Positions 11,189 to 60,341 of a stretch of DNA of 64,000 nucleotides are shown here, piece by piece. A program made the position numbers and the translations under genes. A model generated the notes under the pieces. The model was given only the letters and a program-made list of their open reading frames with translations, was not told where the DNA came from and searched no databases. The stretch spans positions 18,610 to 82,609 of the forward strand of contig CAZCZU010000006.1 of assembly GCA_964503475.1 (NCBI GenBank). Reading direction: 5' to 3'. The number at the start of each line of letters is the position of its first letter. Position 1 is the first letter of the stretch. Source of the stretch: an uncultured Zetaproteobacteria bacterium. GTDB lineage: Bacteria; Pseudomonadota; Zetaproteobacteria; Mariprofundales; Mariprofundaceae.

Positions 11189-12104
11189 TGCGCTGCCTCG
11201 GATCGAGCCACAGCCCCAGCAGATCGGCCAGCAGGTTGGCCAGCACATAGAAGCTGGCGATGATCAGTACACAGCCCTGCACCAGGGGATAATCGCGCCG
11301 CTGGATCGCCTCGATGGTGAGCAACCCCAGCCCCGGCCAGTCGAATACGGTCTCGGTGATCACCGCCCCGCCCAGCACAGCCCCCATCTGCAGGGCAAAC
11401 ATGGTGATGACCGGAATGGCGGCGATACGGGCGGCATGCCGCCACCAGATGGTGCGCTCGGCGACACCGAAGGCGCGCGCCGTACGCACCGCATCCATGC
11501 CCATCGCCTCCAGCCAGCTGGAGCGGGCCATGCGCGACAAAACGGCGGCCAGTGCCGTGCCCAGCGTGATGGCCGGCAACACGATACTGCCGGGCTGTTC
11601 CATGCCCGAGACCGGCAGCCAGCCAAGGAAAACGGCAAAAACAAGCATCAGCACCGGGCCGAGCCAGAAATTGGGAATCGAAACCCCGAGCAGCGAAAAG
11701 GCCATCGCCCCCGCATCCTGGGCATGGCCCGCATGGCGGGCGGCCCAATAGCCGAGTGGCAGGGCCAGGAGCAGGGCCAGAATCAGGCTGACGATGGCAA
11801 GCCTGGCCGTGGCGGGCAGCCGCTCCATGATCAGCTCCAGTACACCGCGGTGGTCGACAAGGCTCGTGCCCCAGTCGCCACTCACCAGGCCAGCGAGATA
11901 GTGGATATACTGGGTCGGAAGCGGTTCATCAAGATGCAGGGCGCTGCGCAAGGCCTCACGATCGGCCGGCATCGCCGTCTCGCCCAACAGCGCATCGACC
12001 GGATCGCCCGGCACCATGTGCAGCAGGAAAAAAACCAGTGTGGCCACACCCAGCAGTGTCGGCACCGCCTGCACGATTCGGATCAGGATCACTCGCCCCA
12101 GCAT
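11181..12104 (-). CDS. ABC transporter permease, DppB/OppB type
   Basis: 307 aa. N-terminus (ILIRIVQAVPTLLGVATLVFFLLHMVPGDP) is typical of DppB/OppB permeases. Confidence 0.85.
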   Translation of the reverse strand: MLGRVILIRIVQAVPTLLGVATLVFFLLHMVPGDPVDALLGETAMPADREALRSALHLDEPLPTQYIHYLAGLVSGDWGTSLVDHRGVLELIMERLPATARLAIVSLILALLLALPLGYWAARHAGHAQDAGAMAFSLLGVSIPNFWLGPVLMLVFAVFLGWLPVSGMEQPGSIVLPAITLGTALAAVLSRMARSSWLEAMGMDAVRTARAFGVAERTIWWRHAARIAAIPVITMFALQMGAVLGGAVITETVFDWPGLGLLTIEAIQRRDYPLVQGCVLIIASFYVLANLLADLLGLWLDPRQRNV

Positions 12105-12180
12105 GCGAGCAGACTAGGCGCTGTGCGGGGGAATATCGAGCGCTTGCCATCGGGGCCTGCGCACCGCAGCTTTACCGGTC

Positions 12181-12885
12181 ATGGTTGCCCAGCATTTTGA
12201 CCCCGAAGAGATTGCAAAATTCGAAGCCATTGCCGCCGAATGGTGGGATCCGCACGGCCGTTTCAAACCGTTGCACCGGATCAACCCGATCCGGCTCGAT
12301 TACATCGGCCGGCAGATGAAGCTGGAAGGCGCTTCGGTGCTCGACGTCGGCTGTGGCGGCGGCCTGCTGGCCGAAGGTATGGCCGGACGCGGCGCCGTGG
12401 TTACCGGCATCGACCGTTCGCCGAAGGCGCTGGGTGTGGCTCGCCTGCATGCCGAACAGAGCGGCACGGCTGTCGACTATGTCGAGAACGATGCCATCCA
12501 CTGGGCCGGCGAGCATGCCGGGGCTTACGATGCCGTCACCTGCCTGGAGGTGCTGGAGCATGTGCCGGATGTCGAGGCAACCGTGGCCGCCTGTGCGGAC
12601 CTGATCAAGCCGGGCGGTCACTTCTTCTTCGCCACCCTGAACCGCACCCCTGTATCTTACCTGAAGGCGATCATCGGCGCCGAATACATCATGGGCTGGC
12701 TGCCGAAGGGCACGCATCAATATGCCAAGTTCATTCGCCCTTCCGAGCTGGTCTCGGCCATGAACCATGCCGGCCTTGAGACCCGCGAACTGACCGGCAT
12801 GTCCTATCGCCTGCTGTCGGACGATTTCGTTCTATCCAAAGACCTGTCGGTCAACTACCTGGGCTACGCCGTCAAACCGGCCTGA
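12181..12885 (+). CDS. ubiG: Ubiquinone biosynthesis O-methyltransferase UbiG
   Basis: 234 aa with EIAKFEAIAAEWWDPHGRFKPLHRINPIRLDYI and the SAM motif VLDVGCGGGLLAE. Confidence 0.9.
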   Translation: MVAQHFDPEEIAKFEAIAAEWWDPHGRFKPLHRINPIRLDYIGRQMKLEGASVLDVGCGGGLLAEGMAGRGAVVTGIDRSPKALGVARLHAEQSGTAVDYVENDAIHWAGEHAGAYDAVTCLEVLEHVPDVEATVAACADLIKPGGHFFFATLNRTPVSYLKAIIGAEYIMGWLPKGTHQYAKFIRPSELVSAMNHAGLETRELTGMSYRLLSDDFVLSKDLSVNYLGYAVKPA

Positions 12886-12926
12886 TTCCGTAGACGCCGA
12901 CCGCACGCAAGCTAGAGTCCGCCGCC

Positions 12927-14999
12927 ATGCGACGTATTACCGTTCCCGTTCTGGCCACTGCCCTTTGCACCGCCAGTACCGTCTGGGCTGCCGGCACCGA
13001 TATCGCTGCCGATACGCTGACCCGTCGCAGCGATGGCGTGGTCGTGGCCGAAGGCAATGTCATCATCCATCGCAAAGGCGAAACCCTGAAAGCGGACGAG
13101 ATTCGTTATGATGCCGCCAACAAGCAGCTTGAGGCCGAAGGGCATGTAAAGATCGAATCGAATTCGGCCGAAATCTCGGCCGAATCGGGCACCCTGCATA
13201 CCGAAGACAAAACCGGTGAGCTGCACAAGGCCACAGCGATCCTGAAAAACGGCGAACGCCTCTCCGCCGATCGTTTCCGACGCATCGACGATAACCACTT
13301 TTCGGTCGAGGGGGTCACCTTCACCACCTGTCCGCCCGACGCCCAGACCTGGCTTCTGCGCGCCTCCCGTGCCGACGTCGACCAGGAGGAAGGGGTGATG
13401 AAGGCACGCAATGTCCGTTTCGAACTGGCCGGCCTGCCGGTCTTCTACAGCCCCTACATGAGCCAGCCCCTGCGCCGCAAGTCCGGCCTGCTGCTTCCCT
13501 TTGCCGGCACCAGCAAACAGCGCGGCACCGAACTGGCCCTGCCGCTCTATCTTGCCCCGGCCCCGAACTGGGATGCCACCATTACGCCCCACTCGATGAC
13601 GGCACGCGGCACCATGGCCGAAACCGAGATTCGCCATGCGTCAGACAAGGGCTATGAAGAGCTGCAGTGGGATAGCATCCACGACCGTCAGACTGCCTAC
13701 AATCGCCAGCGCCTGCGTGCGAAAGTTACGCATGCCCTTCCGGGTAACTGGCAACTCAACAGCAATATCGACCATGTCAGCGATCACCAGTACCTGACCG
13801 ATTTCTCGACCCGCCCGGAAGATGTGGCGGCACGCTTTTTGACCAGCACGGCCGGCCTGAACTGGCAGGGTGATCTGGGCACGGCCAGCCTCTTTGGTCA
13901 GACCCAGCAGGATCTGGCGCTCCCCAGCGATGCCACAACCCTGCAGATCCTGCCGCGCCTGCAGAGTGACCTGGTCATGCAGGGGCAGCACCTCGACCTT
14001 CACTTCGAGCAGCAGAGCACCCGCTTTGCCCGCAATAGCGGCCTCGACGGCTGGCGCGTCGTGCTTCACCCTTGGCTCGAACTGCCCTGGCAGAGCGAAA
14101 CAGGAGCGGCCACAACGACGCTGCGCCTCGGTGCCCGCCATACCCGCTACTGGCTGAACGGCATGACCGCCGGCAATCCCGCGATTGCCAAACAGACCAA
14201 TTATGAGGCCAGCCTGACCAGCCGTGTCGATTTCGAACGCATCAGCGCCAATCGTCACTGGCGGCACACCATCTCACCGGTGCTACGCTACGATTATGCG
14301 ACCGCCCCGGCCCAGGCTGCCCTGCCCAATTTCGACTCCGCCTTCGGCAACCTGACCATCCAGAACCTGATGAACGGCAACCGCTTCAGCGGCCAGGATC
14401 GATTCGAACGCATGCACCGCATCAGCGCCCTGCTGGAAACCGCTCTGCAAAACAAAGCGAAGGCGAATCAGCCGGTGCGCGAGGTACTGCAGATGCGTTT
14501 TGGCGCCGCTTACAATATCCGGCGCCAGACGGTCGACCCAAACCTGAAACAGGTGGCCACACGCCCCTTCTCCAACCTGGTCGGAGATATGATGCTCTCA
14601 CCGCTGGACGGCATCCGCCTCTCCGGCGGCGGCCAATACAACCCCGTCGACCATTACTGGGCCACGGCGCATGCCGACCTGATGCTCTCCCACCCTTACG
14701 GGCACCGGCTCGATGTGCACTGGCAGCAGACCGACCGCCGCTATGCCACCGCCTCGAAGCTGATCAGCACCAACGCCCTGATCCAGCTTGCCCAACGCTG
14801 GCAGGCCACCGGCCGCTGGCAATACGATCCGCGGCTGAAACTGACCCAGCAGGCCAGCGCCGGCATCCACTACCAGCACCCCTGCTGGGATTTAACCATC
14901 GAGGGCTATCGCATCCATCGTACCGGCACTGTGAACTCGAGCGACAGCGGCTACCGTTTCTTGCTCGGCTTCAAGGGGCTGGGTAGCGTCGGTTCATAA
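12927..14999 (+). CDS. lptD: LPS-assembly outer-membrane protein LptD (OstA)
   Basis: 690 aa with a signal peptide, an OstA N-terminal domain and a large beta-barrel. lptD-surA-pdxA synteny. Confidence 0.9.
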   Translation: MRRITVPVLATALCTASTVWAAGTDIAADTLTRRSDGVVVAEGNVIIHRKGETLKADEIRYDAANKQLEAEGHVKIESNSAEISAESGTLHTEDKTGELHKATAILKNGERLSADRFRRIDDNHFSVEGVTFTTCPPDAQTWLLRASRADVDQEEGVMKARNVRFELAGLPVFYSPYMSQPLRRKSGLLLPFAGTSKQRGTELALPLYLAPAPNWDATITPHSMTARGTMAETEIRHASDKGYEELQWDSIHDRQTAYNRQRLRAKVTHALPGNWQLNSNIDHVSDHQYLTDFSTRPEDVAARFLTSTAGLNWQGDLGTASLFGQTQQDLALPSDATTLQILPRLQSDLVMQGQHLDLHFEQQSTRFARNSGLDGWRVVLHPWLELPWQSETGAATTTLRLGARHTRYWLNGMTAGNPAIAKQTNYEASLTSRVDFERISANRHWRHTISPVLRYDYATAPAQAALPNFDSAFGNLTIQNLMNGNRFSGQDRFERMHRISALLETALQNKAKANQPVREVLQMRFGAAYNIRRQTVDPNLKQVATRPFSNLVGDMMLSPLDGIRLSGGGQYNPVDHYWATAHADLMLSHPYGHRLDVHWQQTDRRYATASKLISTNALIQLAQRWQATGRWQYDPRLKLTQQASAGIHYQHPCWDLTIEGYRIHRTGTVNSSDSGYRFLLGFKGLGSVGS

Positions 15000-15073
15000 T
15001 GCCGCTTTGCCGCTGTTCCCGGCGCACGCCGGCATCCCATCCCCTTTGCGCCAATCCCGTTTCCGGAGGCTTC

Positions 15074-16387
15074 ATGCACATCCTGCTCACACCGCTCATG
15101 CTTATCCTGCTGCTGCCTGCCATGGCTCATGCCACGGAGCAGCTCGATTCGGTCGCGGCCGTCGTCAACGGCCAGGCCATCACCTGCTACCAGGTGGAAC
15201 AGGACAAGGATCAGCTGGTACAGCAGATTCGCCAGGCAGGCGTCAGCACGCTGCCGGAAAACAAGACCCTGCTGAAACGTGCCCTCGACAGCCGTATCAC
15301 CCATACGCTTGAGGAGCAGGAGGCGCACAAGCTCGGTATCCATATCAGCGATGACGATATCGACCAGGCCATCAGCAACATCGAAACCCAGAACAATATC
15401 CCGGCCGGTCGCCTTAAGGATGTCCTGAAAGCACGCGGCCTCGACTACGATACCTATCGTGAAAACCTCAGGGAGCGCCTGCTGACCGGCAAAGTGGTCA
15501 ACCTGGCCGTACGCAGCAAACTGAAGGTGAGCGAGGAGTCGATGCGCGAGTACTACCGCAAATACCTCAAGGATCCGAAGCCGATCCGCGAGGTGCGCCT
15601 CTCCCAGATCTTCGTGGCCCTGCCTCAGGCTCCGACCCCGGCCCAGGTGAGCAAGGCCCAGCAGAAAGCCGAACGCATTTATGCCCGCCTGCAGAACGGA
15701 GCCGACTTCAATCACCTGGTCACCATCCTCTCGGACGGCCCCAACGCCAGTCAGGGTGGCGGTATCGGCTGGTTCGCCCCCGGCGGCATCTCCCAGGTCT
15801 TCGCATCGGTGTTCGGGCTGAAAAAAGGCCAATACACCCGGCCGATCCGTTCACCGGCCGGCTTCCATATCATGAAGGTGACGGACGAACGCCTGCAGAA
15901 GCCGGATGTCGGCAAAAGCTACGATGAGGTGAAGGCAAGCCATATCCTGATCCAGATTCCGGAAAGTGCGGATGAGCACACCCGCGCCAAGATCATGCTG
16001 CGCGCCAAGAACATCGCCCGCGACATGCAGGATGCCAGCAATGAGGAGTTCGCCAACCGTGCCAAGGAGATTTCGCAGGGACCAAGCGCTTCCCGCGGCG
16101 GCGATCTTGGCTGGTTCAAGCATGGCCAGATGCTGCCCGCCTTCGAAAAGGCAGCCTTTGCCCTCGAGCCTGGCCAGACCAGCGGCGTGGTGCAGTCGCA
16201 GTACGGCCTGCATATCATTCGTGTCACCGGCAAACGCCATATCGATCCGAATGCCTTCGAGGCACACCGCGATCAGATCGAACAGATCCTGATCAACTCC
16301 GAGATGCAGCAGCAGGTACCACGCTGGCTCAACGGCCTGCGCAGCAAGGCCACAATCACCGAATTCGGCTGCACCTCCGACCAGTGA
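15074..16387 (+). CDS. surA: Periplasmic chaperone / peptidyl-prolyl isomerase SurA
   Basis: Start at ATG 15074 (MHILLTPLMLILLLPAMAHA signal peptide). Two parvulin PPIase domains (HILI..., GGDLGWF twice). Confidence 0.9.
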   Translation: MHILLTPLMLILLLPAMAHATEQLDSVAAVVNGQAITCYQVEQDKDQLVQQIRQAGVSTLPENKTLLKRALDSRITHTLEEQEAHKLGIHISDDDIDQAISNIETQNNIPAGRLKDVLKARGLDYDTYRENLRERLLTGKVVNLAVRSKLKVSEESMREYYRKYLKDPKPIREVRLSQIFVALPQAPTPAQVSKAQQKAERIYARLQNGADFNHLVTILSDGPNASQGGGIGWFAPGGISQVFASVFGLKKGQYTRPIRSPAGFHIMKVTDERLQKPDVGKSYDEVKASHILIQIPESADEHTRAKIMLRAKNIARDMQDASNEEFANRAKEISQGPSASRGGDLGWFKHGQMLPAFEKAAFALEPGQTSGVVQSQYGLHIIRVTGKRHIDPNAFEAHRDQIEQILINSEMQQQVPRWLNGLRSKATITEFGCTSDQ

Positions 16388-18120: not shown

Positions 18121-18666
18121 ATGCAGATTCTGATCGCCTACCACTCCGATTACGGTGCCACAGAAAAGATGGCCCAGGCCATCGCGGCCGGCGCCAGGGT
18201 GGCCGACCCCGCCGTCGAAATCGTCTGCAAGCAGGCTCTGGAGACAACGCTGGAGGATCTCACATCGGCCGATGTCATCTTCTTCGGCACCCCGGTGCAC
18301 ATGGGGGCCATGGCCTGGCAGATGAAGAAACTGATCGATACCGGCGCCAAGCTGTGGATGGAAGGAGCCCTGGAGGGCAAGGTCGGCGGTGTCTTTGCCA
18401 GCGGCGGCGGCTTCGGCGGTGCCGGCGGCGGCGCCGAACAGGTACTGATCTCGCTCTATGCCAACTTCCTCGAGCATGGCATGCATGTCGTCGGCTTCCC
18501 TAAGAGTCTGCCCGGTTACTCGGGCGGCGGCCTGCACTGGGGCCCCTACGGGCGCACCGGCAACGACGAGGGCATGCCGGCCGGTATCGATGATGCGGCC
18601 CTGGCGGCCGCACGCAGCTACGGCACCCATGTCATCGAAGTGGCCGAGCGTCTGCTGGAGTCATGA
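18121..18666 (+). CDS. WrbA-type flavodoxin-like NAD(P)H:quinone oxidoreductase
   Basis: 181 aa with MQILIAYHSDYGATEKMAQAIA and FGTPVHMGAMAWQMK, indicating a flavodoxin-like fold. Confidence 0.8.
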   Translation: MQILIAYHSDYGATEKMAQAIAAGARVADPAVEIVCKQALETTLEDLTSADVIFFGTPVHMGAMAWQMKKLIDTGAKLWMEGALEGKVGGVFASGGGFGGAGGGAEQVLISLYANFLEHGMHVVGFPKSLPGYSGGGLHWGPYGRTGNDEGMPAGIDDAALAAARSYGTHVIEVAERLLES

Positions 18667-48469: not shown

Positions 48470-48612
48470 GGGGGTGAATATCTACCCTACCCCACCCTTG
48501 CAGGCCATGGTCCATCGCTTTCATCGACTTGCAGTGATGGTATGTTTACCGCCTCAACAGGCAGGAAGGGTCAGTGACTTCCGTCATTCGTTTTCAAGGA
48601 TCAGCAGCACGC

Positions 48613-50085
48613 ATGTTTGAACAGACATTCCGCAATATCGATGACGTACTCTGGAAAGAGGCCGGCTGCACTACCGAGCTCGACTACACCGAGCAGACCT
48701 CATGGATGCTGTTTCTCAAGTACCTCGACGATCTGGAGCAGGAGAAGGCACAGCTCGCCGAACTGCACGGCAAGCCTTACACCTTTATCATCGACGAAGC
48801 GCACCGCTGGTCCAGCTGGGCGGCCCCGAAAACGGCCGACGGCAAATTCGATCACAACAAGGCGCTCACCGGCCCCGATCTGATCGACTACGTGGACAGC
48901 GAACTCTTCCCCTATCTCAAAGGCTTCAAGCAGCGGGCCACCGGGCCGGACACCATCGAATACAAGATCGGCGAGATTTTCGGCGAGATCAAAAACAGGT
49001 TCACCAGCGGCTATTCACTCAGAGATGCGCTGGAGCATATCGACGGCCTGCGCTTCCGCTCGCAGAAGGAGAAGCACGAGCTCTCCCACATCTACGAGGC
49101 GAAGATCAAAAACATGGGCAATGCCGGGCGCAACGGCGGCGAGTACTACACGCCGCGCCCGCTGATTCGCGCCATCATCCGGGCGGTTGATCCCAAAATC
49201 GGCGAGCGCATCTATGACGGCGCCTGCGGCTCGGCGGGCTTCCTCTGTGAGGCCCACGACTTTCTGAAATACGATGAACACGGAAAAGTACGCAACGGTT
49301 TAACCACCAGCGATCTGAAAACACTTCAGGCATCCACCTTCTACGGCAAGGAGAAGAAGAGCCTCGCCTACGTGATTGCCATCATGAACATGATCCTGCA
49401 CGGCATCGAAGCGCCCAATATCATTCACACCAACACCCTGGCCGAGAACATTGCCGATATTCAGGAGAAGGATCGCTTCGACGTGGTGCTCGCCAATCCG
49501 CCATTCGGCGGCAAGGAGCGCAAGGAGGTGCAGCAGAATTTCCCGATCAAGACGGGCGAAACCGCCTTCCTCTTCCTGCAGCATTTCATCAAGACCCTGA
49601 AGGCGGGCGGCCGCGCCGGCATCGTCATCAAAAACACCTTCCTGAGTAACACTGACAATGCCTCGGTGAGTCTGCGCCGCGAGCTGCTGGAATCCTGTAA
49701 TTTACATTCCATCCTCGATTGTCCGCAGGGCACCTTCCAGGGCGCGGGCGTGAAAACGGTGGTTCTGTTTTTCGACAAGGGCAGTGCCACGCGCAAGGTG
49801 TGGTACTACCAGCTCGATCCCGGAAGAAGCCTCGGCAAAACCAACCCGCTCAACGATGCCGACCTGGCCGAGTTCGTGGAGCTACAGAAATCGAAAGCCG
49901 ACTCCGACAAATCGTGGTTGGTGGACATCGCCGCTATCGATCCGTCCACCTTCGATCTTTCGGTGAAGAATCCGAACGGCGGTGAGGAAATCGACCACCG
50001 CGACCCGGCCGAGATCATGGCCGAGATCGCCGCCCTCGACAAAGAGAGCTCCGATATCCTGAACTCCATTAAGGCGCTGCTGTGA
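48613..50085 (+). CDS. hsdM: Type I restriction-modification system, DNA methyltransferase subunit HsdM
   Basis: HsdM_N-like N-terminus (FRNIDDVLWKEAGCTTELDYTEQTSWMLFLKYLDD). SAM motif IYDGACGSAGFL and catalytic NPPF (VLANPPFGG). An alternative GTG start at 48574 is possible. Confidence 0.92.
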   Translation: MFEQTFRNIDDVLWKEAGCTTELDYTEQTSWMLFLKYLDDLEQEKAQLAELHGKPYTFIIDEAHRWSSWAAPKTADGKFDHNKALTGPDLIDYVDSELFPYLKGFKQRATGPDTIEYKIGEIFGEIKNRFTSGYSLRDALEHIDGLRFRSQKEKHELSHIYEAKIKNMGNAGRNGGEYYTPRPLIRAIIRAVDPKIGERIYDGACGSAGFLCEAHDFLKYDEHGKVRNGLTTSDLKTLQASTFYGKEKKSLAYVIAIMNMILHGIEAPNIIHTNTLAENIADIQEKDRFDVVLANPPFGGKERKEVQQNFPIKTGETAFLFLQHFIKTLKAGGRAGIVIKNTFLSNTDNASVSLRRELLESCNLHSILDCPQGTFQGAGVKTVVLFFDKGSATRKVWYYQLDPGRSLGKTNPLNDADLAEFVELQKSKADSDKSWLVDIAAIDPSTFDLSVKNPNGGEEIDHRDPAEIMAEIAALDKESSDILNSIKALL

Positions 50086-51308
50086 AAGCTGGTTGGCAAG
50101 TTAAGCCGCTGGGTGATATGAGTCAGTTCCAGCGTGGTCTAACTTACTCAAAAAAAGACGAGGCTGACGCATCGGACAACGTTGTGGTGCGAGCTACGAA
50201 TATTGATTTGGAAACAAACCAACTCGATTTTTCAGAGTTGAAATATATCAGTGAAAAAATTGTCGTTCCTGTGGCTAAGAAGCTTAAAAAAGGGTCTTTG
50301 CTCATATGCACGGCGAGTGGCAGCAAAAGCCATTTGGGCAAGGTAGCTTTCATTGATGATGACTATGATTACTCCTTTGGTGGATTCATGGGGATGCTTA
50401 CCCCAAATGAAGACCTACTGCCAAGATACCTGTTTCACCTGATGACATCAGGGGGCTACAAGGATTTTATCGGGCAGCTTGCTGATGGTGCAAATATTAA
50501 TAATTTAAAGTTTGACGACCTGAAGCGATTTCATGTCCCATTCCCACCTATTGCCGAACAGCGGCGGATTGTGGGGATTCTGGATGAGGCATTCGAGGGC
50601 ATTGCCAAGGCGGTGGCCAATGCCGAAGCCAATCTGAAAAACGCCCGCGAACTCTTCGAAAGCCACCTCAACGCTATCTTCTCCAACCCCGGCCCCGACT
50701 GGACGGAGAATAAGTTCGGAGATATTTGCGACATCAAACACGGCTTTGCATTCAAGAGCGAATTCTTCGTCTCCAATAGCAAGCATGTCCTGCTTACTCC
50801 CGGCAATTTCTTTGAAGCTGGTGGATACCGTGATCGAGGTGATAAACAGAAGTTTTATGACGGGCCTATCCCCGATGGTTTTGTCTTGGAAAAAGGCGAT
50901 CTGTTAATTGCTATGACGGAGCAAGCTGCCGGTTTGTTGGGTAGCTCAATCATTATCCCTGAATCGGGTGTTTTTCTTCATAACCAGCGACTCGGATTAG
51001 TTGTGCCAAAAGAAGGTGTGCCTTGGGACAATAAGTTTTTCGCTCTCGTTTTTAATACTAAAGCGATAAGAAAAGCCATTCATGACGGTGCTTCGGGCGT
51101 AAAGGTCAGACACACATCACCCAAAAAGATTGCCAATATTTCGGTTTCGTTCCCTACATCAGTTGACGAACAACAAGCCATTGTCGCCAAGCTCGATAAA
51201 CTGGCTGCGGAGACGAAGCGGCTGGAGGCGATCTACCGGCAGAAGCTGGCGCTGCTGGCCGAGCTGAAGCAATCACTGCTGCACAAGGCTTTCAGCGGGG
51301 AGTTGTAA
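50082..51308 (+). CDS. hsdS: Type I restriction-modification system, specificity subunit HsdS
   Basis: 408 aa with two target-recognition domains separated by a conserved helix (PPIAEQRRIVGILDEAFEGIAKA) and a C-terminal conserved helix (EQQAIVAKLDKLAAE...LKQSLLHKAFSGEL). Overlaps the hsdM stop. Visibly lower GC. Confidence 0.9.
   Translation: MKAGWQVKPLGDMSQFQRGLTYSKKDEADASDNVVVRATNIDLETNQLDFSELKYISEKIVVPVAKKLKKGSLLICTASGSKSHLGKVAFIDDDYDYSFGGFMGMLTPNEDLLPRYLFHLMTSGGYKDFIGQLADGANINNLKFDDLKRFHVPFPPIAEQRRIVGILDEAFEGIAKAVANAEANLKNARELFESHLNAIFSNPGPDWTENKFGDICDIKHGFAFKSEFFVSNSKHVLLTPGNFFEAGGYRDRGDKQKFYDGPIPDGFVLEKGDLLIAMTEQAAGLLGSSIIIPESGVFLHNQRLGLVVPKEGVPWDNKFFALVFNTKAIRKAIHDGASGVKVRHTSPKKIANISVSFPTSVDEQQAIVAKLDKLAAETKRLEAIYRQKLALLAELKQSLLHKAFSGEL
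51264..51308 (+). repeat. Direct repeat copy 1 (the authentic hsdS 3' end)
   Basis: CTGAAGCAATCACTGCTGCACAAGGCTTTCAGCGGGGAGTTGTAA. It matches 52810-52854 with 2 mismatches, and the last 33 nt are identical. Confidence 0.9.
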
Positions 51309-51402
51309 ACCGTCAGTCCGAATTTTCATCCGACGGAAAAGCACAGTTGACGCAAAAAAAAGTATTTACCCGATTGGTAAATGCATTTAATGTACGCACA
51401 CG

Positions 51403-51732
51403 GTGGATGTATTCTTTTCAACCAATGACTTGAAGAAGCTATGCGAGAACAGGCGGGCAATGGAGCGTCAGTTTGGTAGCCCCTGTGCGAAGAAGCTGCG
51501 GCAACGGTTGTCCGATTTGTGCGCTGCCGAAACGCTGACTGATGTAGTGGCAGGCAGGCCACATCCACTGAAAAGAGATCGGCTGGGGCAGTTCGCACTG
51601 GATTTGCATGGCGGAACCCGGCTGGTGTTTGAGAGTGCGGATGATCCGATTCCGCATTTGGATGATGGAAGCATTGCGTGGCATGAGGTTACAAAAGTGC
51701 GCATCGTGTTTATTGGAGATTACCATGACTGA
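51403..51732 (+). CDS. higB: HigB-like (COG3549, plasmid maintenance killer) RelE-fold toxin
   Basis: 109 aa, GTG start. HPLKRDRLGQFALDLHGGTRLVFE...VRIVFIGDYHD matches the HigB-like pattern (HPLKG.R.G.WS.R...WR..F...V....DYH). The toxin-first order and 8-nt overlap with a HigA-type HTH gene also fit. Confidence 0.72.
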   Translation: MDVFFSTNDLKKLCENRRAMERQFGSPCAKKLRQRLSDLCAAETLTDVVAGRPHPLKRDRLGQFALDLHGGTRLVFESADDPIPHLDDGSIAWHEVTKVRIVFIGDYHD

Positions 51733-52807
51733 ACAAGTTGCAACCTTTGCGCCGGATTGGGTTTCCCCTCCCGGCGATACCATTCTGGACTTGCTGGAAG
51801 AGCGCGGCTGGAAGCAGACCGAGTTTGCCGAGCGCATCGGCTTCACCACCAAGCATGTAAATCAGATCATCAACGGCAAATCGGCGATCACTGAAGATGC
51901 GGCCATCCGGCTGGAGCGTGTGCTCGGTAGTACAGCTCGTTTCTGGATGAACCGCGAAAGCCAGTATCGTGAAGCCTTGGCCAGAGAGGCCGAACTGGAA
52001 GCGCTGGAAAACGATGTGGAATGGCTTACGGAAATCCCTGTCACGCACATGGTGAAGTGCGGATGGATGGCCAAATGCAAAAGCAAGCCTGCGCAGGTGG
52101 CCGAGGCGCTGAAGTTTTTCGGTGTTGCTTCGGTTCCTGCCTGGCGCAATCAGTATGCCGCACCACTTGCTGCGTTTCGTGCGAGCGACAAGTTCGAAAA
52201 AAAACCAGGCTATGTTGCAGCATGGCTTCGGTATGGCGAACGCTGTGCCGATGAAATTCGGACAGCGCCTTTCGACAAAGCCAAATTCAGAGCTGCTCTT
52301 GAAGAGCTGCGCGCATTGACCATCGAGTCCGATCCCGATGTGTTCATCCCAGCTTTGGTGGAAAAATGTGCGGCGGCTGGTGTAGCTGTCGTGTTTGCCC
52401 CCGCGCCGACTGGCTGTCCGGCTTCGGGCGCCACCAAGTGGGTCGATTCCGACAAGGCCTTGTTGATGCTCAGCCTGCGTCATAAGACGAATGACCACCT
52501 CTGGTTCTCATTCTTTCACGAGGCTGGGCATTTGCTGATGCATGGAAAGAAGATGCTGTTTATTGAGGGTAATGGTCTGGATGGTAAACAGGAAGATGAA
52601 GCCAATCAGTTTGCCGCCAATCTGCTGATCCCCAAACAATTCGAAGAACGATTGATGTTCGTGGGGCATACAGCGACTGCGATCCGGGCTTTTGCCAAAG
52701 AAGTAGGTGTGGCACCCGGCATTATCGTGGGCCGGATGCAAAACGATGGCCTTCTTGGATGGGGAACACCACTTAACAAATTGAAAGTTAGTTATCAATG
52801 GGCTTGA
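51725..52807 (+). CDS. HigA-type Xre HTH antitoxin domain fused to an ImmA/IrrE (COG2856, peptidase M78) metalloprotease domain
   Basis: Start ATG 51725. The N-terminus PPGDTILDLLEERGWKQTEFAERIGFTTKHVNQIINGKSAITEDAAIRLERVLGSTARFWMN is a HigA-family HTH. The C-terminal part carries HEXXH (FFHEAGHLLMH, codons at 52517-52531). Confidence 0.8.
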   Translation: MTEQVATFAPDWVSPPGDTILDLLEERGWKQTEFAERIGFTTKHVNQIINGKSAITEDAAIRLERVLGSTARFWMNRESQYREALAREAELEALENDVEWLTEIPVTHMVKCGWMAKCKSKPAQVAEALKFFGVASVPAWRNQYAAPLAAFRASDKFEKKPGYVAAWLRYGERCADEIRTAPFDKAKFRAALEELRALTIESDPDVFIPALVEKCAAAGVAVVFAPAPTGCPASGATKWVDSDKALLMLSLRHKTNDHLWFSFFHEAGHLLMHGKKMLFIEGNGLDGKQEDEANQFAANLLIPKQFEERLMFVGHTATAIRAFAKEVGVAPGIIVGRMQNDGLLGWGTPLNKLKVSYQWA

Positions 52808-52809
52808 GA

Positions 52810-52854
52810 CTGAAACAATCCCTGCTGCACAAGGCTTTCAGCGGGGAGTTGTAA
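52810..52854 (+). repeat. Direct repeat copy 2: an orphan duplicate of the hsdS 3' end (encodes LKQSLLHKAFSGEL-stop with no hsdS body upstream)
   Basis: CTGAAACAATCCCTGCTGCACAAGGCTTTCAGCGGGGAGTTGTAA begins 3 nt after the stop of the HTH-ImmA gene. The downstream flank also partly resembles the flank after the real hsdS stop (CCGTCA..GCACAGTT). Confidence 0.9.
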
Positions 52855-52944
52855 GCCCCGTCAAGCAGGCGCACAGTTCGCGGCAAGAAACCCCGCCTCA
52901 GGCCATGCGCCCCATGCGTACCCTCGGCGGGTTACTTTTTATCC

Positions 52945-53001
52945 AGCCCCCGGCACTACGCCCGCCACCCATCCGGCCCGGCCGAACCCGGGGGCGTTTT
53001 T
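52945..53001 (+). terminator. Possible rho-independent terminator after the orphan hsdS 3' end
   Basis: GCCCCCGG (52945-52952) pairs with CCGGGGGC (52988-52995) and is followed by GTTTTT. The loop is long, so confidence is low. Confidence 0.3.
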
Positions 53002-53109
53002 CACTCAGTTTATGTTCTGCCGAATTGATAAACCGTGAGTTGCTTTTCCCTCCGAAAAACAAACCGGTTATGGTGGTCATATTGAAGAATCGGGTGCTAT
53101 AGTTCTGCC

Positions 53110-54267
53110 ATGGAAAGGGTCGAGGCGATCAATCCCGATCGCTTGAAATGGTGTAGTGAGCAATACGGTATCGCGCTGGATGATCTGGCGCGGCAACTTC
53201 GTATCGCGCCTGAAACCATGGAAAAGGCCGTGAACGGCGAACCTGCCCTCACCTTCAACCAGCTCGAAAAAATCGCCAAATGCTTTAATCGCGGCATTCT
53301 GTTCTTTCTGGAAGAGGCACCCGTGAGCGAAGAGCAAGTCTTCTCTCCCCAGTTCCGTACGCTCTCCAGCCAGAAGACCGAGCTGACGCCCAATCTGAAA
53401 AACATCATTCAGCGCTTCGAAAAGCAGCGCGAAGGCTATATCGGACTGCTGGAGGATCTGGACGAACCAATCGACCGCCCCTGGCTGCCCGAAGGCATGC
53501 CCGACACAGGCAGAGGCAACATCAAGGAGACGGCCGCCTTTATTCGCTCCTGGCTCGGCATCGGGTCTCGTACCTCTTTCGAAGAGCTGCGCAGCGCCGT
53601 GGAGAGCAAAGGCATCCTAGTGTTCGTCTCCAATGGCTATCAGGGGCAGTGGAAGATCGCCAAGGAAAACCCGGTGCGCGGCTTCTCCATGTATTACGAC
53701 CACTATCCGGTGATCGTGATCAAAAAGCTGGATGCCAGGGCGGCCCAGACCTTCACGATGATTCACGAGCTCGGCCATCTGCTGCTGCACCGGGAAACCA
53801 TGCTCGATGAAGCAGACGATTTTTACAGCCATCAGGGGAAAGAGCGCGAGGCGAATGCCTTTGCCGGAAACCTGCTTGTCCCCGATGCATTTGTTCACAC
53901 CATCAACATGCGGGACTTTCCGTACGATACCGTCAGCGGCTATGACAATTACCTCAAAAGCCATGCAAGGCAGTGGGGTGTCAGTGTCGAGGTGGTTCTG
54001 CGGCGGTTGATGGATGAGGGGAGACTGGCTTCCGAGCATTACGAAGCCTATCGACAATGGAGGGCCGAACAGCCGGCGCAGGAAGCGGGTGGCGCTATGC
54101 GCTATCGCTACCAGGAACCGACCAATATGTTTGGTGACACATTCGTGCGCACCGTGCTCGACGCATACCACAGCGATCACATCACGCTCGCCAGAGCCAG
54201 CTCCTACCTCGACAACCTGAAGGTGGATTATATCCACGAGCTGGAAGCGAGATATGCACGCCTTTGA
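53110..54267 (+). CDS. HTH domain fused to an ImmA/IrrE (COG2856, peptidase M78 / DUF955) metalloprotease
   Basis: 385 aa. The N-terminus (LKWCSEQYGIALDDLARQLRIAPETMEKAVNGEPALTFNQLEKIAKCF) is Xre-like. HEXXH occurs as MIHELGHLLLH (53764-53778), with a downstream EREANAFAGNLLVP typical of ImmA/IrrE. Confidence 0.8.
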   Translation: MERVEAINPDRLKWCSEQYGIALDDLARQLRIAPETMEKAVNGEPALTFNQLEKIAKCFNRGILFFLEEAPVSEEQVFSPQFRTLSSQKTELTPNLKNIIQRFEKQREGYIGLLEDLDEPIDRPWLPEGMPDTGRGNIKETAAFIRSWLGIGSRTSFEELRSAVESKGILVFVSNGYQGQWKIAKENPVRGFSMYYDHYPVIVIKKLDARAAQTFTMIHELGHLLLHRETMLDEADDFYSHQGKEREANAFAGNLLVPDAFVHTINMRDFPYDTVSGYDNYLKSHARQWGVSVEVVLRRLMDEGRLASEHYEAYRQWRAEQPAQEAGGAMRYRYQEPTNMFGDTFVRTVLDAYHSDHITLARASSYLDNLKVDYIHELEARYARL

Positions 54268-54736
54268 TGCCTCATCGCTGATTCACGCTTGGGATAATTA
54301 TCCGATCGACAAATTCCCGCCGCTCTGGGAGTGGATGGCCGGGCAAATTCAGAGTGGAGACTTTGTCGTTTCAGAGGTCGCGTTGAAAGAGATCGGCAAC
54401 AAGGCACCCGAATGTGCTACCTGGCTCAAAGAGCAGGAAATCCAGAGGCTTCCTATGTCCAACGCGATTGCGCAGGAGGCCTTACGCATCAAAAGGCTGC
54501 TCGGCATCGAAGACGACCGGTATCATCCCAAGGGTGTGGGAGAAAACGATATCCTGATCATCGCCACCGCCAAAGTGCATGACCATACGCTTGTCACGGA
54601 GGAGGGATTTCAGGCTGTATTCCCCGCCGTGCCCGCCAAGAGTCGAATCCCGACCGTTTGCAACATGGGGGAGGTCCGTGTGGAGTGGTGCAAATTTATC
54701 GATCTTATCAAGGCAAGCGATGCCGTATTTTCCTGA
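54254..54736 (+). CDS. DUF4411-family protein (predicted PIN-like nuclease fold)
   Basis: 160 aa. The N-terminus FDASSLIHAWDNYPIDKFPPLWEWM and ENDILIIATAKVHDHTLVTEE match my recollection of DUF4411/PIN-like acidic motifs. 14-nt overlap with the preceding ImmA gene. Confidence 0.65.
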   Translation: MHAFDASSLIHAWDNYPIDKFPPLWEWMAGQIQSGDFVVSEVALKEIGNKAPECATWLKEQEIQRLPMSNAIAQEALRIKRLLGIEDDRYHPKGVGENDILIIATAKVHDHTLVTEEGFQAVFPAVPAKSRIPTVCNMGEVRVEWCKFIDLIKASDAVFS

Positions 54737-54886: not shown

Positions 54887-57247
54887 ATGTTGAACGAAGC
54901 CGAGACCCGAGCCGAACTGATCGACCCTGCCCTGCGCGAGGCGGGCTGGGGTGTGGTCGACGCAAGCCGTGTGCGCCGGGAATACATCACGCCGGGCCGC
55001 TTACAGGGAGCAGGAAGGCGCGCCAAGCCGGAGATTGCCGATTACGTATTGGTCTATCGCAATCGTAAGCTGGCGGTGATCGAGGCGAAGAAGCAGGCGC
55101 TGCCCTATACCGAGGGCGTACAGCAGGCCAAGACCTACGCCGACAAGCTGAATATCCGTTTTACCTACTCCACCAATGGCGAACGCATCTACGGCATCGA
55201 CATGGATACGGGGGAAGAGGGTGAAATCGAGCGCTACCCTTCACCGGAAGAGCTGTGGCGCATGACCTTCCCCGAAGAGAGCTCATGGCGCGATCGCTTT
55301 GCCGATGTGCCATTCGAGGACAAGGGTGGCACCTGGGAGGCGCGCTACTATCAGGAGAACGCCATCAATGCCGTGCTCAAGGCGGTCGCCGATGAGAAAG
55401 AGCGCATCCTGCTCACACTGGCGACAGGCACCGGCAAAACCTTCATCGCCTTCCAGCTGGCATGGAAACTGTTCCAGAGCCGCTGGAACCTGAGCAGGGA
55501 ACCATCGCGCCGCCCGCGCATTCTCTTTCTGGCCGACCGCAACATTCTCGCCGATCAGGCCTACAACGCCTTCTCGGCCTTTCCCGAGGATGCACTGGTT
55601 CGCATCGCGCCGGACGATATCCGCAAGAAGGGGCGCGTTCCCAAGAACGGCAGCATCTTCTTCACCATCTTCCAGACCTTCATGAGCGGCACGGATGAGC
55701 AGGGTGAACCGAGCCCCTACTTCGGCGAATATCCTCCCGACTTCTTCGATTTCATTGTCATCGACGAATGCCATCGCGGCGGGGCCAACGACGAATCCAC
55801 CTGGCGCGGCATTCTCGAATACTTCTCTCCTGCCGTACAACTCGGCCTGACCACCACACCGAAACGCAAGGACAACACCGACACCTACGCCTATTTCGGC
55901 GAGCCGGTTTATGTCTATTCGCTGAAAGAAGGCATCAACGACGGCTTCCTGACCCCGTTCCGGGTACGCCAGATCGCCACCACGCTGGATGAGTATACCT
56001 ACACCTCGGACGACACTTTGGTGGAGGGCGAGCTTGAGACCGGAAAGGTATACGAAGAGAAAGATTTCAACCGCACCATCGAGATCGAGGAGCGGGAGCT
56101 GTACCGCGTGCAGACCTTCATGCAGATGATCGATCAGCGCGAGAAGACGCTGGTGTTCTGCGCCAATCAGGGCCATGCAGCTCTGGTGCGCGATCTGATC
56201 AACCAGGCAAAGAGCCATAGCGATCCGAACTACTGTGTACGCGTGACCGCCAATGATGGTGAGCGAGGGGAAGAATATCTGCGTTTGTTCCAGGATAACG
56301 ACAAATCGATCCCGACCATCCTCACCACCTCGCAAAAACTCTCCACGGGCGTGGATGCACGCAATGTGCGCAATATCGTGCTGATGCGGCCGGTCAATTC
56401 GATGATCGAGTTCAAACAGATTATCGGGCGCGGCACTCGCCTGTTTGACGGCAAGGATTACTTCACCATTTTCGATTTTGTAAAAGCCCACAAACATTTC
56501 AGCGACCCGGACTGGGATGGTGAGCCTGATGATCCGGAGAACTGTCCTAAGTGCGGATGCAGGCCATGCCAGTGTGAAAAGCCGGAACCGAAACCATGCA
56601 AAATATGTGGAGCACAGCCTTGCATCTGTGTAAAGGAACCGCCAAGGAAGAAGGCGCGGGTGAAGTTGCGCGATGGTAAAGAGCGCTCCATCCAGCATAT
56701 CTCGATCACCACCTTCTGGGGGGCGGATGGCAAACCGCTCTCGGCATCGGAATTCCTTGAACTGCTGTTCGGGCAACTGCCGGAGTTTTTCAGGGATGAG
56801 GACGAACTGCGTGCGATCTGGTCGATGCCGGATACGCGCCACAAGTTGCTCGACGGGCTGGCCGAGAAAGGCTTCGGCAGAGAGCAGCTGCTGGAGATGC
56901 GCAAGGTGATCGATGCTGAGGACAGCGACCTGTTCGATGTGTTAGCGCATGTCGCCTACGCGCTACAGCCGCTGGCGAGGGTTGAACGAGCCGCCAACGC
57001 CAAGGAGAAAATCCACTCATCATTCGATGAAAAGCAGCAGGCATTTCTTGAGTTTGTGCTGAACCAGTATGTTTCCCTTGGCGTGGATGAGTTGGACCAG
57101 GAGAAGCTCGGAACGCTTCTGGAACTCAGATATCACTCGCTGGCTGATGCCATTGAGGAGCTCGGAAGGCCCGAAGAAATCAGGTCGATGTTTATCGGAT
57201 TCCAGAAATTCCTGTATGCCGAAGCATCTTCTTTGAACTCAAACTAG
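54887..57247 (+). CDS. hsdR: Type I restriction enzyme R subunit HsdR, type IB (EcoEI/EcoAI-like) architecture
   Basis: 786 aa. N-terminal PD-(D/E)xK nuclease (ADYVLV...VIEAKK), SF2 helicase motifs (LATGTGKT, VIDECHRG) and an EcoEI_R_C-like C-terminal domain (FWGADGKPLSASEFLELLFGQLPEFF...DLFDVLAHVAY). Confidence 0.9.
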   Translation: MLNEAETRAELIDPALREAGWGVVDASRVRREYITPGRLQGAGRRAKPEIADYVLVYRNRKLAVIEAKKQALPYTEGVQQAKTYADKLNIRFTYSTNGERIYGIDMDTGEEGEIERYPSPEELWRMTFPEESSWRDRFADVPFEDKGGTWEARYYQENAINAVLKAVADEKERILLTLATGTGKTFIAFQLAWKLFQSRWNLSREPSRRPRILFLADRNILADQAYNAFSAFPEDALVRIAPDDIRKKGRVPKNGSIFFTIFQTFMSGTDEQGEPSPYFGEYPPDFFDFIVIDECHRGGANDESTWRGILEYFSPAVQLGLTTTPKRKDNTDTYAYFGEPVYVYSLKEGINDGFLTPFRVRQIATTLDEYTYTSDDTLVEGELETGKVYEEKDFNRTIEIEERELYRVQTFMQMIDQREKTLVFCANQGHAALVRDLINQAKSHSDPNYCVRVTANDGERGEEYLRLFQDNDKSIPTILTTSQKLSTGVDARNVRNIVLMRPVNSMIEFKQIIGRGTRLFDGKDYFTIFDFVKAHKHFSDPDWDGEPDDPENCPKCGCRPCQCEKPEPKPCKICGAQPCICVKEPPRKKARVKLRDGKERSIQHISITTFWGADGKPLSASEFLELLFGQLPEFFRDEDELRAIWSMPDTRHKLLDGLAEKGFGREQLLEMRKVIDAEDSDLFDVLAHVAYALQPLARVERAANAKEKIHSSFDEKQQAFLEFVLNQYVSLGVDELDQEKLGTLLELRYHSLADAIEELGRPEEIRSMFIGFQKFLYAEASSLNSN

Positions 57248-57492
57248 CTAGGTACTGAAAAGGTCTCCTTCATCCAAGTGTAGAGCTGGACTGTGGTGAG
57301 CTCTTCGAGCGGGATATCCTCGAACGCATCGTGCGGATCCTGATCTCTTAAGCAGAACTGGTAGGTGACCACCTCGGGGGCATGATCGTGCATGATCAGC
57401 ATGGTGTAAGTCCCGGGGACATCATACTTAATTGGCCGCCAGCTTTGCATGGGGTATATCCCGGTATATACTTTCATCATGTTTGTCTGCAA
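57244..57492 (-). CDS. Hypothetical 82-aa protein; the C-terminal ~50 aa are paralogous to the ORF at 60009..60341 (copy A, chimeric N-terminus)
   Basis: LIMHDHAPEVVTYQFCLRDQDPHDAFEDIPLEELTTVQLYTWMKETF compared with LIMHDQAPEVVTYQFCLRDQDPFDEFEDMPLDELTTARLYTWMKETF. Its stop overlaps the hsdR stop through the CTAG palindrome at 57244-57247. It may be a pseudogene remnant. Confidence 0.4.
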   Translation of the reverse strand: MQTNMMKVYTGIYPMQSWRPIKYDVPGTYTMLIMHDHAPEVVTYQFCLRDQDPHDAFEDIPLEELTTVQLYTWMKETFSVPS

Positions 57493-58191: not shown

Positions 58192-58208
58192 ATGCCTGGC
58201 ACGCCACC

Positions 58209-58404
58209 TTAATCGGCAGCTGAGAAGCGCTCCTTCATCCAGGTGTAGAGCCGGGCGGTGGTGAGCTCATCCAGCGGCATATCCTCGAATTCGTCGAAGG
58301 GATCCTGATCTCTGAGGCAGAACTGGTAGGTGACCACCTCGGGGGCCTGATCGTGCATGATCAACAGGATGCGCTTGCCCGTTTTCAGGCAGTCGATGGT
58401 GATG
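58209..58404 (-). pseudogene. 3' fragment (copy B) of the small ORF found intact at 60009..60341
   Basis: 58231-58404 is identical by eye to 60030-60203 (174 nt), and homology ends abruptly at 58404. Reading upstream in frame reaches a TAA with no start codon, so the fragment is non-coding. Confidence 0.85.
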
Positions 58405-60005: not shown

Positions 60006-60008
60006 TAC

Positions 60009-60341
60009 TTAATTCGCTGCTGAGAAGGTCTCCTTCATCCAGGTGTAGAGCCGGGCGGTGGTGAGCTCATCCAGCGGCATATCCTCGAATTCGTCGAAGG
60101 GATCCTGATCTCTGAGGCAGAACTGGTAGGTGACCACCTCGGGGGCCTGATCGTGCATGATCAACAGGATGCGCTTGCCCGTTTTCAGGCAGTCGATGGT
60201 GATGGCATCGGCCGGGATGCCGCGCTTGCGCATATGCTTGTTCACCCCGATCAACGGATCGATCTTCTCGAAATCGCGCTGGATATCGGCCTGGGCTGCG
60301 GTGGCCCGCTCGTAGACCTGGGTTAACGGTGTCTGCGTCAT
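60009..60341 (-). CDS. Hypothetical 110-aa protein of unknown family (copy C, intact)
   Basis: Intact ORF whose stop lies 3 nt from the abiEii stop. Two further partial copies in the island (57244.. and 58209..) share its C-terminal half. I recognised no family motifs. Confidence 0.6.
   Translation of the reverse strand: MTQTPLTQVYERATAAQADIQRDFEKIDPLIGVNKHMRKRGIPADAITIDCLKTGKRILLIMHDQAPEVVTYQFCLRDQDPFDEFEDMPLDELTTARLYTWMKETFSAAN

Follow-up and report, generated by a model that had tools for sequence, protein, structure and literature searches.

A 64,000-nucleotide stretch of DNA from an uncultured Zetaproteobacteria bacterium (GenBank assembly GCA_964503475.1, contig CAZCZU010000006.1, forward-strand positions 18,610 to 82,609; hereafter the window) carries a type I restriction-modification (R-M) operon in which the 3′ end of the specificity gene hsdS is present twice. 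All genes lie on the plus strand in the order hsdM, hsdS, a cassette encoding proteins of 109 and 360 amino acids (aa), an ImmA-DUF4411 gene pair, and hsdR. The 1.5-kb cassette with its two genes sits between hsdS and the ImmA-DUF4411 pair, and it is followed by an orphan copy of the last 45 nucleotides (nt) of hsdS. We regard it as probable, albeit with modest confidence, that two related type I R-M loci recombined and left this orphan tail as a scar.

A direct repeat of the hsdS 3′ end

The intact hsdS gene (50082–51308; 408 aa; Pfam Methylase_S in two stretches, 5.6e-26) ends with tail copy 1 (51264–51308; CTGAAGCAATCACTGCTGCACAAGGCTTTCAGCGGGGAGTTGTAA), which comprises the final 14 codons plus TAA and is the true end of the Methylase_S protein. 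Tail copy 2 (52810–52854; CTGAAACAATCCCTGCTGCACAAGGCTTTCAGCGGGGAGTTGTAA) is a direct copy on the same strand that encodes the same 14 residues (LKQSLLHKAFSGEL, then the stop codon) and lacks both an hsdS body and a target recognition domain (TRD). The two copies are identical at 43 of 45 positions, including all of the final 33 nt, and the mismatches (CTGAAG/CTGAAA and TCA/TCC) are both synonymous third-position changes. Exactly two occurrences of the 33-mer are present in the window, compared with none in 100 dinucleotide-preserving shuffles. When the hsdS tail was compared with the hsdS–hsdR interval by Smith-Waterman alignment, a z score of 27.9 was obtained; all non-hits among 66 related loci had z < 6. 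The repeat, which an initial annotation of this DNA had described as a 45-nt direct duplication, is far beyond chance.

Copy 2 begins 2 nt past the TGA codon (52805–52807) of the cassette gene that encodes HTH_3 and Peptidase_M78 domains. Homology of this 360-aa gene to its relatives runs to ~52801–52808 at both the DNA and protein levels. The encoded C terminus (ending KLKVSYQWA) aligns with those of relatives (ending LKIRYQWQ or RYQWSLEAE), which shows that the terminus is native and the gene complete. Because this homology reaches ~52808, there is no room for a decayed hsdS body ahead of copy 2. The annotation was therefore right to place the second copy just past the stop codon without an hsdS body. 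It had also named hsdS TRD homology upstream of 52810 as a sign that its reading was wrong; such homology was looked for and is absent at that position in this genome.

These observations bear on the possibility that two tandem hsdS genes once flanked the cassette, and that a deletion spared only the last 45 nt of the second gene and stopped at higA because antitoxin loss would be lethal. Multi-hsdS loci are common in the literature, and degraded loci related to this one (L080, L097, and L099 in the census described below) hold orphan tails amid gene debris. Furthermore, selection against antitoxin damage could explain the tight boundary. However, no trace of an hsdS body is left, and a deletion ending exactly 1–2 nt after the stop codon would be a coincidence. 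No full second hsdS is present in this slot among the related loci examined. We consider this explanation improbable.

The sequences beyond the two copies had been reported to be partly similar. This similarity is present, although weak (CCGTCA, GCACAGTT; local alignment p ~0.012 versus shuffles). The post-stop spacers are strongly diverged and differ by an 18-nt indel, though the tails themselves are 96% identical. A G+C-rich stem (52946–52995) followed by TTTTT is found only after copy 2, as was also stated in the annotation, and the folding energy of this stem is no better than that of shuffled sequences. The sole terminator-like match after copy 1 is a conserved palindrome, TTTACC-N5-GGTAAA, that belongs to the cassette promoter.

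A repeat search revealed no terminal inverted repeats at the cassette ends, and no transposase or integrase/recombinase domain was found among the genes between 48.5 and 57.3 kb. Insertion of a transposon or insertion sequence was rejected on the basis of these two absences and of the length of the duplication, which is 45 nt compared with the 2–15 bp expected. A phase-variable shufflon of multiple hsdS genes was likewise rejected, since the copies are direct, the orphan is without a TRD, and there is no recombinase.

The orphan tail has no evident function at this locus. An 18-codon open reading frame (ORF; MGLRLKQSLLHKAFSGEL, followed by a stop codon; 52798–52854) has an ATG that overlaps the higA stop codon and encodes the orphan tail. 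This ORF is probably meaningless, and the orphan tails of other loci have no comparable ORF. The possibility that the orphan supplies a ribosome-binding site was rejected for this window because 255 nt separate the orphan from the start of the next gene. The same idea does fit a tail fragment in the related locus L106, as well as hsdM tails that precede hsdS in other loci.

The cassette and its boundaries

The first cassette gene (51403–51732) encodes the 109-aa protein, which is a conserved partner of the HTH-M78 gene. The second (51725–52807) is full length and encodes the 360-aa HigA-like protein with an HTH domain (HTH_3, 4.7e-11) and an M78 (ImmA/IrrE) peptidase domain (Peptidase_M78, 5.9e-9). 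At its N terminus, the 360-aa protein scores 53.1 bits against the NCBIfam HigA model TIGR02607 (cut-off 47.7) and matches solved HigA chains with E values of ~1e-9 to 1e-10. The protein also resembles PD-Lambda-2_B in PADLOC (5.5e-28). Unlike classical HigA, which has no such domain, this protein carries an additional C-terminal M78 peptidase domain.

The 109-aa protein has no sequence match in Pfam, NCBIfam, PADLOC, or the Protein Data Bank (PDB). Its AlphaFold2 (AF2) model has a pLDDT of 61, and the best Foldseek matches are ParE toxins with a nonsignificant E value of 0.47. An attempt to confirm this protein as HigB by its fold thus failed, given the low-confidence model and the lack of a significant match. 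The name "HigB" is one given by position rather than demonstrated identity. Of the HigB/HigA-ImmA cassette proposed in the annotation, the HigA-type HTH domain has been substantiated by the TIGR02607 score, whereas the identity of HigB is not established.

The two genes form a conserved module. The closest relatives share 80–83% protein identity and ~74% DNA identity, and the 109-aa protein is 69–76% identical to its counterparts in loci L007, L100, L102, L103, and L105. These closest relatives reside on Zetaproteobacteria-type metagenome contigs, and none adjoins hsdS. In the relatives (L007–L016 and L100–L105), a DEAD-like gene of ~681–696 aa lies downstream of the pair, and every locus of sufficient extent then has a T5orf172/MUG113 gene (~404 aa). 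The set is often located beside an MmeI-type enzyme and a reverse transcriptase (RT) or abortive infection (Abi) gene. Possibly, the 109-aa, 360-aa, DEAD-like, and T5orf172 genes constitute a four-gene defense unit, of which the window has the first two genes only.

DNA homology to the cassette relatives covers positions 51354–52808 only, with its left onset at 51354–51358. Between hsdS and this onset is a 45-nt spacer (51309–51353) that is homologous to neither hsdS nor the cassette. The homologous region opens with the promoter/operator region of the cassette (51354–51402), where the palindrome TTTACC-CGATT-GGTAAA (51365–51381) lies upstream of the 109-aa gene. The TTTACC-N5-GGTAAA pattern is kept in all of the relatives (L007, L100, L102, L103, and L105) and probably serves as the operator to which the HTH-M78 protein binds.

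At the other end, a CTTGAG sequence at the end of higA is shared with L102 and L103, and cassette homology ends at 52808. Homology to the hsdS tail starts at 52810, which leaves a junction (GA; 52808–52809) that is blunt and located 1–2 nt after an intact higA gene. The DEAD-like and T5orf172 genes of the relatives are absent here, and therefore the right end is a breakpoint rather than the natural end of the cassette. The right join looks illegitimate. The cassette is not distinguishable from its neighbors by base composition.

Given these boundaries, site-specific integration would require that the 33-nt block served as an att core, that a recombinase acted in trans, and that the cassette carried in a replacement tail. 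The topology fits this scheme: An intact hsdS end is on one side, a displaced tail encoding the same 14 residues is on the other, and the two share an identical core. A similar three-copy pattern of gene tails is also present 5 kb downstream in the same island. However, neither the cassette nor the R-M locus has a recombinase gene, and close relatives of the cassette occur in unrelated contexts without any hsdS tail. Moreover, the remnants in related loci vary in length (28–123 nt) and derive from hsdM, hsdS, and hsdR ends, unlike a single att site. We judge this alternative to be very improbable.

The outcome would resemble that of prophage e14 in icd, where an intact gene with a functional tail is likewise accompanied by a displaced tail copy beyond the insert. 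However, e14 needs its own integrase and a fixed att core, whereas no recombinase is present here and related scars vary.

Two hsdS alleles or one duplicated target

The closest relative found of this R-M system is locus L106, whose HsdR protein is 79% identical. The central and C-terminal conserved regions of hsdS have 86–88% DNA identity between the two loci. The orphan tail and the hsdS tail of L106 are identical at 46 of 48 positions, including the 3 nt after the stop codon. They share A6, C12, and the first post-stop base, G (G+1), whereas copy 1 of the window has G6 and A12. The final 33 nt are identical in copy 1, the orphan, and the L106 tail. Because L106 has the same 33 nt, the identity of this block reflects conservation at the level of the lineage. 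A role for the block as a crossover or gene-conversion tract was rejected for the same reason, since it is invariant in the sub-lineage. The states by which the orphan departs from copy 1 likewise occur in functional alleles.

Two simple calculations were made on these differences. If the orphan had drifted neutrally from copy 1, the probability of hitting the L106 states would be ~1e-3 by our own count. If copy 1 had changed instead, there would be two changes in ~12 synonymous sites compared with none in 45 neutral orphan sites (p ~0.04). Because the differences are synonymous, the orphan carries L106 states, and the post-stop spacers are diverged, we favor an origin of the two tails from separate hsdS alleles over duplication of a single target, although the evidence from these few positions is thin.

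The main rival explanation is an in situ insertion with long target duplication. In this scenario, a cassette without mobility genes entered the end of a single resident hsdS, ~45–90 nt were copied on both sides, and slight divergence followed. Repeats longer than 30 bp without mobility genes fit a published class of insertions that includes 46-bp repeats over gene 3′ ends (PMC2853133). The 43/45 identity and 33-nt identical run of the two copies also exceed those of all 741 pairs among 39 family tails, none of which surpasses 42/45 or a 30-nt run. In addition, the weak similarity between the copies continues past the stop codons. In opposition to this model, the intergenic part is far more diverged than the coding part and contains an 18-nt indel. 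Both differences within the tails are synonymous, and the orphan states equal those of the L106 allele. A recent duplication is also not needed, given that L106 shares the 33 nt, and no empty site was found in the collections searched. We therefore hold a duplication in place to be rather doubtful, while keeping it under serious consideration.

The annotation had interpreted the repeat as an insertion or recombination scar at the hsdS 3′ end, formed when the target was duplicated. The nonrandom nature of the repeat and the lack of a transposase target duplication uphold the first part of this interpretation. In contrast, the tails look like two alleles and the right join is not within homology, which disagrees with the second.

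The same arrangement in independent assemblies

An identical arrangement is present in four independent Joint Genome Institute (JGI) metagenome contigs of 8–79 kb. Six contigs carry this HigA, and the arrangement is the same in all that reach past the cassette; two short Logan contigs end inside the repeats. Unitig depth over the cassette equals that of the flanks in two sequencing runs (18.4 versus 19.6/16.9, and ~70 versus 74/54). These data address the concern that the true locus is an empty site, and that a cassette with one tail on a separate molecule or locus was threaded into it through the shared 33-mer during assembly. Both paths are compatible with a k=31 unitig graph on its own, where the repeat collapses into one 33-nt node at ~2x depth. 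However, the four independent JGI assemblies share one path, the two differences between the 45-nt copies are kept separate in the assemblies, and cassette depth matches flank depth. An assembly artifact is, accordingly, the least credible of the explanations we weighed.

Searches for other forms of the locus gave few matches. The genome contigs contain no match to the ImmA protein and none to the exact 33-mer, and in the protein collection, identical ImmA and HigA proteins are found only on contigs of the same arrangement. When metagenomes were scanned for a 24-mer of the tail, only L106 and L107 matched. Other content is observed in the hsdS–hsdR slot of L019 and L106.

A second, diverged homologue of the higBA-type cassette is present on a 2.5-kb contig from another organism in the same microbial-mat sample (run X2). 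A reported joint at 51736/52376 is spurious and arises from this homologue.

Gene-end scars in related type I loci

A census of 80 loci from many phyla was also made. The loci were fetched by their HsdM proteins (74–80% identical) and were searched by regular expression, self-BLAST, and Smith-Waterman alignment with shuffles. Duplicated gene-end scars were observed in ~11 of the 80, and two further cases, L106 and L107, came from the metagenome scan with the tail 24-mer. Many loci carry cargo in the hsdM–hsdS or the hsdS–hsdR interval, and a clear minority of the cargo-bearing junctions keep a gene end. The hsdS–hsdR gaps range from -7 to ~4000 nt. Bracketed cargo is of the kinds usually embedded and includes Fic, RhuM, KilA-N, DUF1016/YhcG, and ImmA-DUF4411 genes, and one locus has a weak 23S-rRNA-IVP-like cargo match that is below the Pfam cut-off.

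Three types of remnant are represented. Orphan hsdS tails are found in the HsdM-fetched loci L035, L047, L056, and L080, and L036, L056, and L098 have orphan hsdR heads, each beginning precisely with the start codon. Orphan hsdM tails are located directly ahead of hsdS in L051, L054, L055, L061, L076, and L095. No remnant reaches 125 nt (range 28–123 nt), and identity to the intact copy is 83–98%. The proposal that the hsdS 3′ end is a recurring cargo boundary is consistent with L035, L047, L056, L080, L106, and L107. However, an effect specific to the hsdS helix is contradicted by hsdM 3′ ends and hsdR 5′ ends that show the same scars. To call the window "direct evidence" of a docking site, as the annotation did, is too strong.

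Several of these loci are informative individually. In L035, two 109-nt copies of the hsdS tail, identical over their final 48 nt, bracket an ImmA-DUF4411 pair. The same locus (11592–15525, a Gallionellaceae metagenome-assembled genome) has a small gene between hsdM and hsdS that is GIY-YIG-like by eye, an hsdS gene split by ~3 kb of inserted DNA, and a pair ahead of hsdR that is Phd/PIN-like by eye. In L056, the middle of the slot contains an hsdR head and, after it, an hsdS tail; this seam is a direct sign that a segment of another locus was spliced in.

The two loci recovered with the 24-mer carry shorter fragments. In the A+T-rich genome of L107 (reverse complement, 380–470), the locus's own hsdS tail (ending KSAFAGKL before the stop codon) is followed after 18 nt by a G+C-rich orphan 24-mer that is identical to the hsdS tail of the window and precedes a possible Fic-type gene (assigned by eye). 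The L107 orphan is a foreign tail fragment that was carried across very different genomes. In L106 (reverse complement, 1335–1365), a 24-nt hsdS-tail fragment (AAGGCTTTAAGCGGGGAGATT) is located 95 nt past the real hsdS stop codon and adjoins the ATG of a Fic gene, with a Shine-Dalgarno-like GGGGAG 7 nt before the start. Tail fragments such as these may travel with cargo as translation-initiation regions.

A related pattern is present further downstream in the island of the window. A 197-nt segment occurs as three direct copies (57243–57439, 58208–58404, and 60008–60204) with 72–97% identity. The segment is the terminal part of a small ORF that adjoins hsdR on the minus strand, and its copies are positioned between downstream toxin-antitoxin (TA)/Abi cassettes. 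This triplicate is the same theme of gene-tail scars.

A proposed origin of the orphan tail

If the orphan tail is a recombination scar, its formation could have involved two loci. One would have contributed hsdS with its own tail, the 45-nt spacer, and the higB-like/HigA-M78 cassette (50082–52808). The resident locus would have contributed the terminal 45 nt of the hsdS allele it carried, the spacer and terminator, the ImmA-DUF4411 pair, and hsdR (52810 onward). The left exchange would have relied on homology common to type I loci of one family, located either in hsdM or hsdS or within the tail. On the right, an illegitimate join would have connected a point 1–2 nt past the higA stop codon to position -45 of the resident hsdS. 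Such a product could be generated by homology-facilitated illegitimate recombination of incoming linear DNA or by single-crossover (Campbell-type) integration of a circular fragment with a tail and cassette. The linear and circular options yield the same product and cannot be told apart.

This origin combines features that are directly observed with steps that are less certain. Observed are the repeat, the blunt right junction, the complete higA gene, the missing mobility genes, and the presence of similar scars in related loci. From these we infer that the tails are allelic in origin and by which route they recombined.

Several considerations weigh against a merger of two loci. The allelic argument is thin, since it rests on only two to three informative positions. 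The outcome would be no different if the tail had been duplicated in situ and the hsdS allele was later replaced, or if copy 1 later acquired two synonymous substitutions. Neither an empty site nor a donor locus was found in genome contigs, metagenome contigs, or the protein collection. The next relatives of the ImmA protein are only 76% and 63% identical and occur in other contexts, with no other copy above 76%. Uniformly short remnants are not obviously predicted by random illegitimate joins, unless long ones are lost or selected against. Finally, the KilA-N loci L051, L055, and L061 may reflect one shared ancestral event, such that the census counts are not all independent.

In principle, and in keeping with the excision suggested in the annotation, the 33-nt block could permit rare RecA-dependent deletion of the cassette. 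The hybrid tail would keep the encoded residues, and hsdS would be restored.

A more speculative idea is that the conserved gene ends of this type I R-M family, namely the hsdS tail, the hsdM tail, and the hsdR head, act as portable homology handles. Cassettes composed of a handle plus cargo would integrate beside the intact gene by a RecA single crossover, would stack with the newest nearest hsdS, and could exit as circles when the repeated handles recombine. We offer this scheme tentatively and think it unlikely to be correct. If it were true, recombinase-free, integron-like cassette exchange would take place inside R-M operons.

Comparison with known systems

Homologous recombination at conserved hsdS regions is known to swap TRDs within type I families. 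The crossovers fall in the conserved central and C-terminal coding DNA of hsdS, and the same C-terminal segment is duplicated here, whereas TRD swapping replaces sequence without duplication or extra genes. Another precedent is homology-facilitated illegitimate recombination, which de Vries and Wackernagel reportedly described in 2002 for naturally transformable bacteria. One homologous anchor and one illegitimate join give an intact incoming gene, cargo, and a truncated resident gene, and the order is the same in the window. In the present case, the microhomology at the 52808–52810 join is no more than 1–3 nt and ambiguous.

Some type I operons are known to harbor defense or toxin genes between hsdS and hsdR, as exemplified by PrrC in the EcoprrI type I R-M operon. 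As with other embedded-cargo loci, the window has same-strand cargo in the hsdS–hsdR slot, and related loci carry different cargo. Unlike those loci, the window has two stacked cassettes with a tail scar between them. In enteropathogenic Escherichia coli (EPEC), DarTG2 is embedded between hsdS and hsdR of the RRDM island, and this slot is described as a potential recombination hotspot (PMC12255303). Embedded defense genes are also the subject of "guilt-by-embedding" (Payne et al. preprint 10.1101/2024.01.29.577857). In the passages searched, these embedding studies (PMC12255303; 10.1101/2024.01.29.577857) do not mention that gene ends are duplicated where the cargo begins or stops.

Insertion with long target duplication of R-M units was reported by Nobusato et al. 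2000, as cited and extended by Furuta et al. 2010 (PMC2853133). In the latter study, the mechanism is called unknown and is linked to recombination or natural competence. The window resembles this class in having an insert of a few kilobases without a transposase or integrase and repeats longer than 30 bp. Repeats of the class commonly extend over the 3′ end of an adjacent gene, as in 46-bp Haemophilus examples, and R-M units inserted in this way are also described in Helicobacter and others (PMC2853133). With respect to the features used by Furuta et al., the repeats here exceed 30 bp, there is no mobile-element gene, and the insert is smaller than 20 kb. However, the insert is a TA-like pair and the R-M genes are the recipient, whereas in their examples the R-M unit is the insert. 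Members of the class also show a single-copy empty site, whereas none was found here and the copies look allelic.

Other features of the locus

The methyltransferase gene hsdM (48574–50085, plus strand as for all features here) is identified by Pfam N6_Mtase (1.4e-63) and HsdM_N. Beyond the orphan tail is a spacer (52855–53000) in which the terminator-like hairpin stem (52946–52995) and T-run (52996–53000) are recognized by pattern match. The downstream ImmA/IrrE M78 peptidase-HTH gene (53110–54267; Peptidase_M78, 7.2e-19) is antitoxin-like and RmrA-like, and its protein matches RmrA of RosmerTA in PADLOC (1.2e-22). It is followed by a toxin-like gene with DUF4411 and PIN-like domains (54254–54736; DUF4411 8.4e-20, PIN 6.3e-6). 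The restriction subunit gene hsdR (54887–57247) is of the EcoEI_R_C type (ResIII 2e-36, EcoEI_R_C 3.5e-29).

A promoter-like site, TGGTCA-18-TATAGT (53074–53103), is located 6 nt ahead of the ImmA start codon. The -10-like element (TATAGT/TATAAT), within GTGCTATAGTT or GTGCTATAATT, is kept ~6–10 nt before the start of the RmrA-like ImmA gene in three distant loci (window 53093–53112, L017 630–650, and L019 9985–10003). The conservation of this site so near the start codon suggests that the transcript is leaderless or has a very short leader. The higB-like gene may have a similarly short leader, with TAATGT ~9 nt before its start.

Implications for defense operons

The result for this single locus is mainly descriptive, and the scar is informative yet fairly ordinary. 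Defense genes are often embedded in other defense operons, and to our knowledge how they arrive there has not been described. In the window, the scar would record the addition of a higBA-type cassette ahead of an older ImmA-DUF4411 pair, with no dedicated mobility enzyme and with the join at the conserved hsdS end. The presence of scars at hsdM, hsdS, and hsdR boundaries suggests a general, recombination-driven route of cargo turnover in these operons. "Guilt by embedding" is used to discover new systems, and scars of this kind constitute a fossil record of the embedding event.

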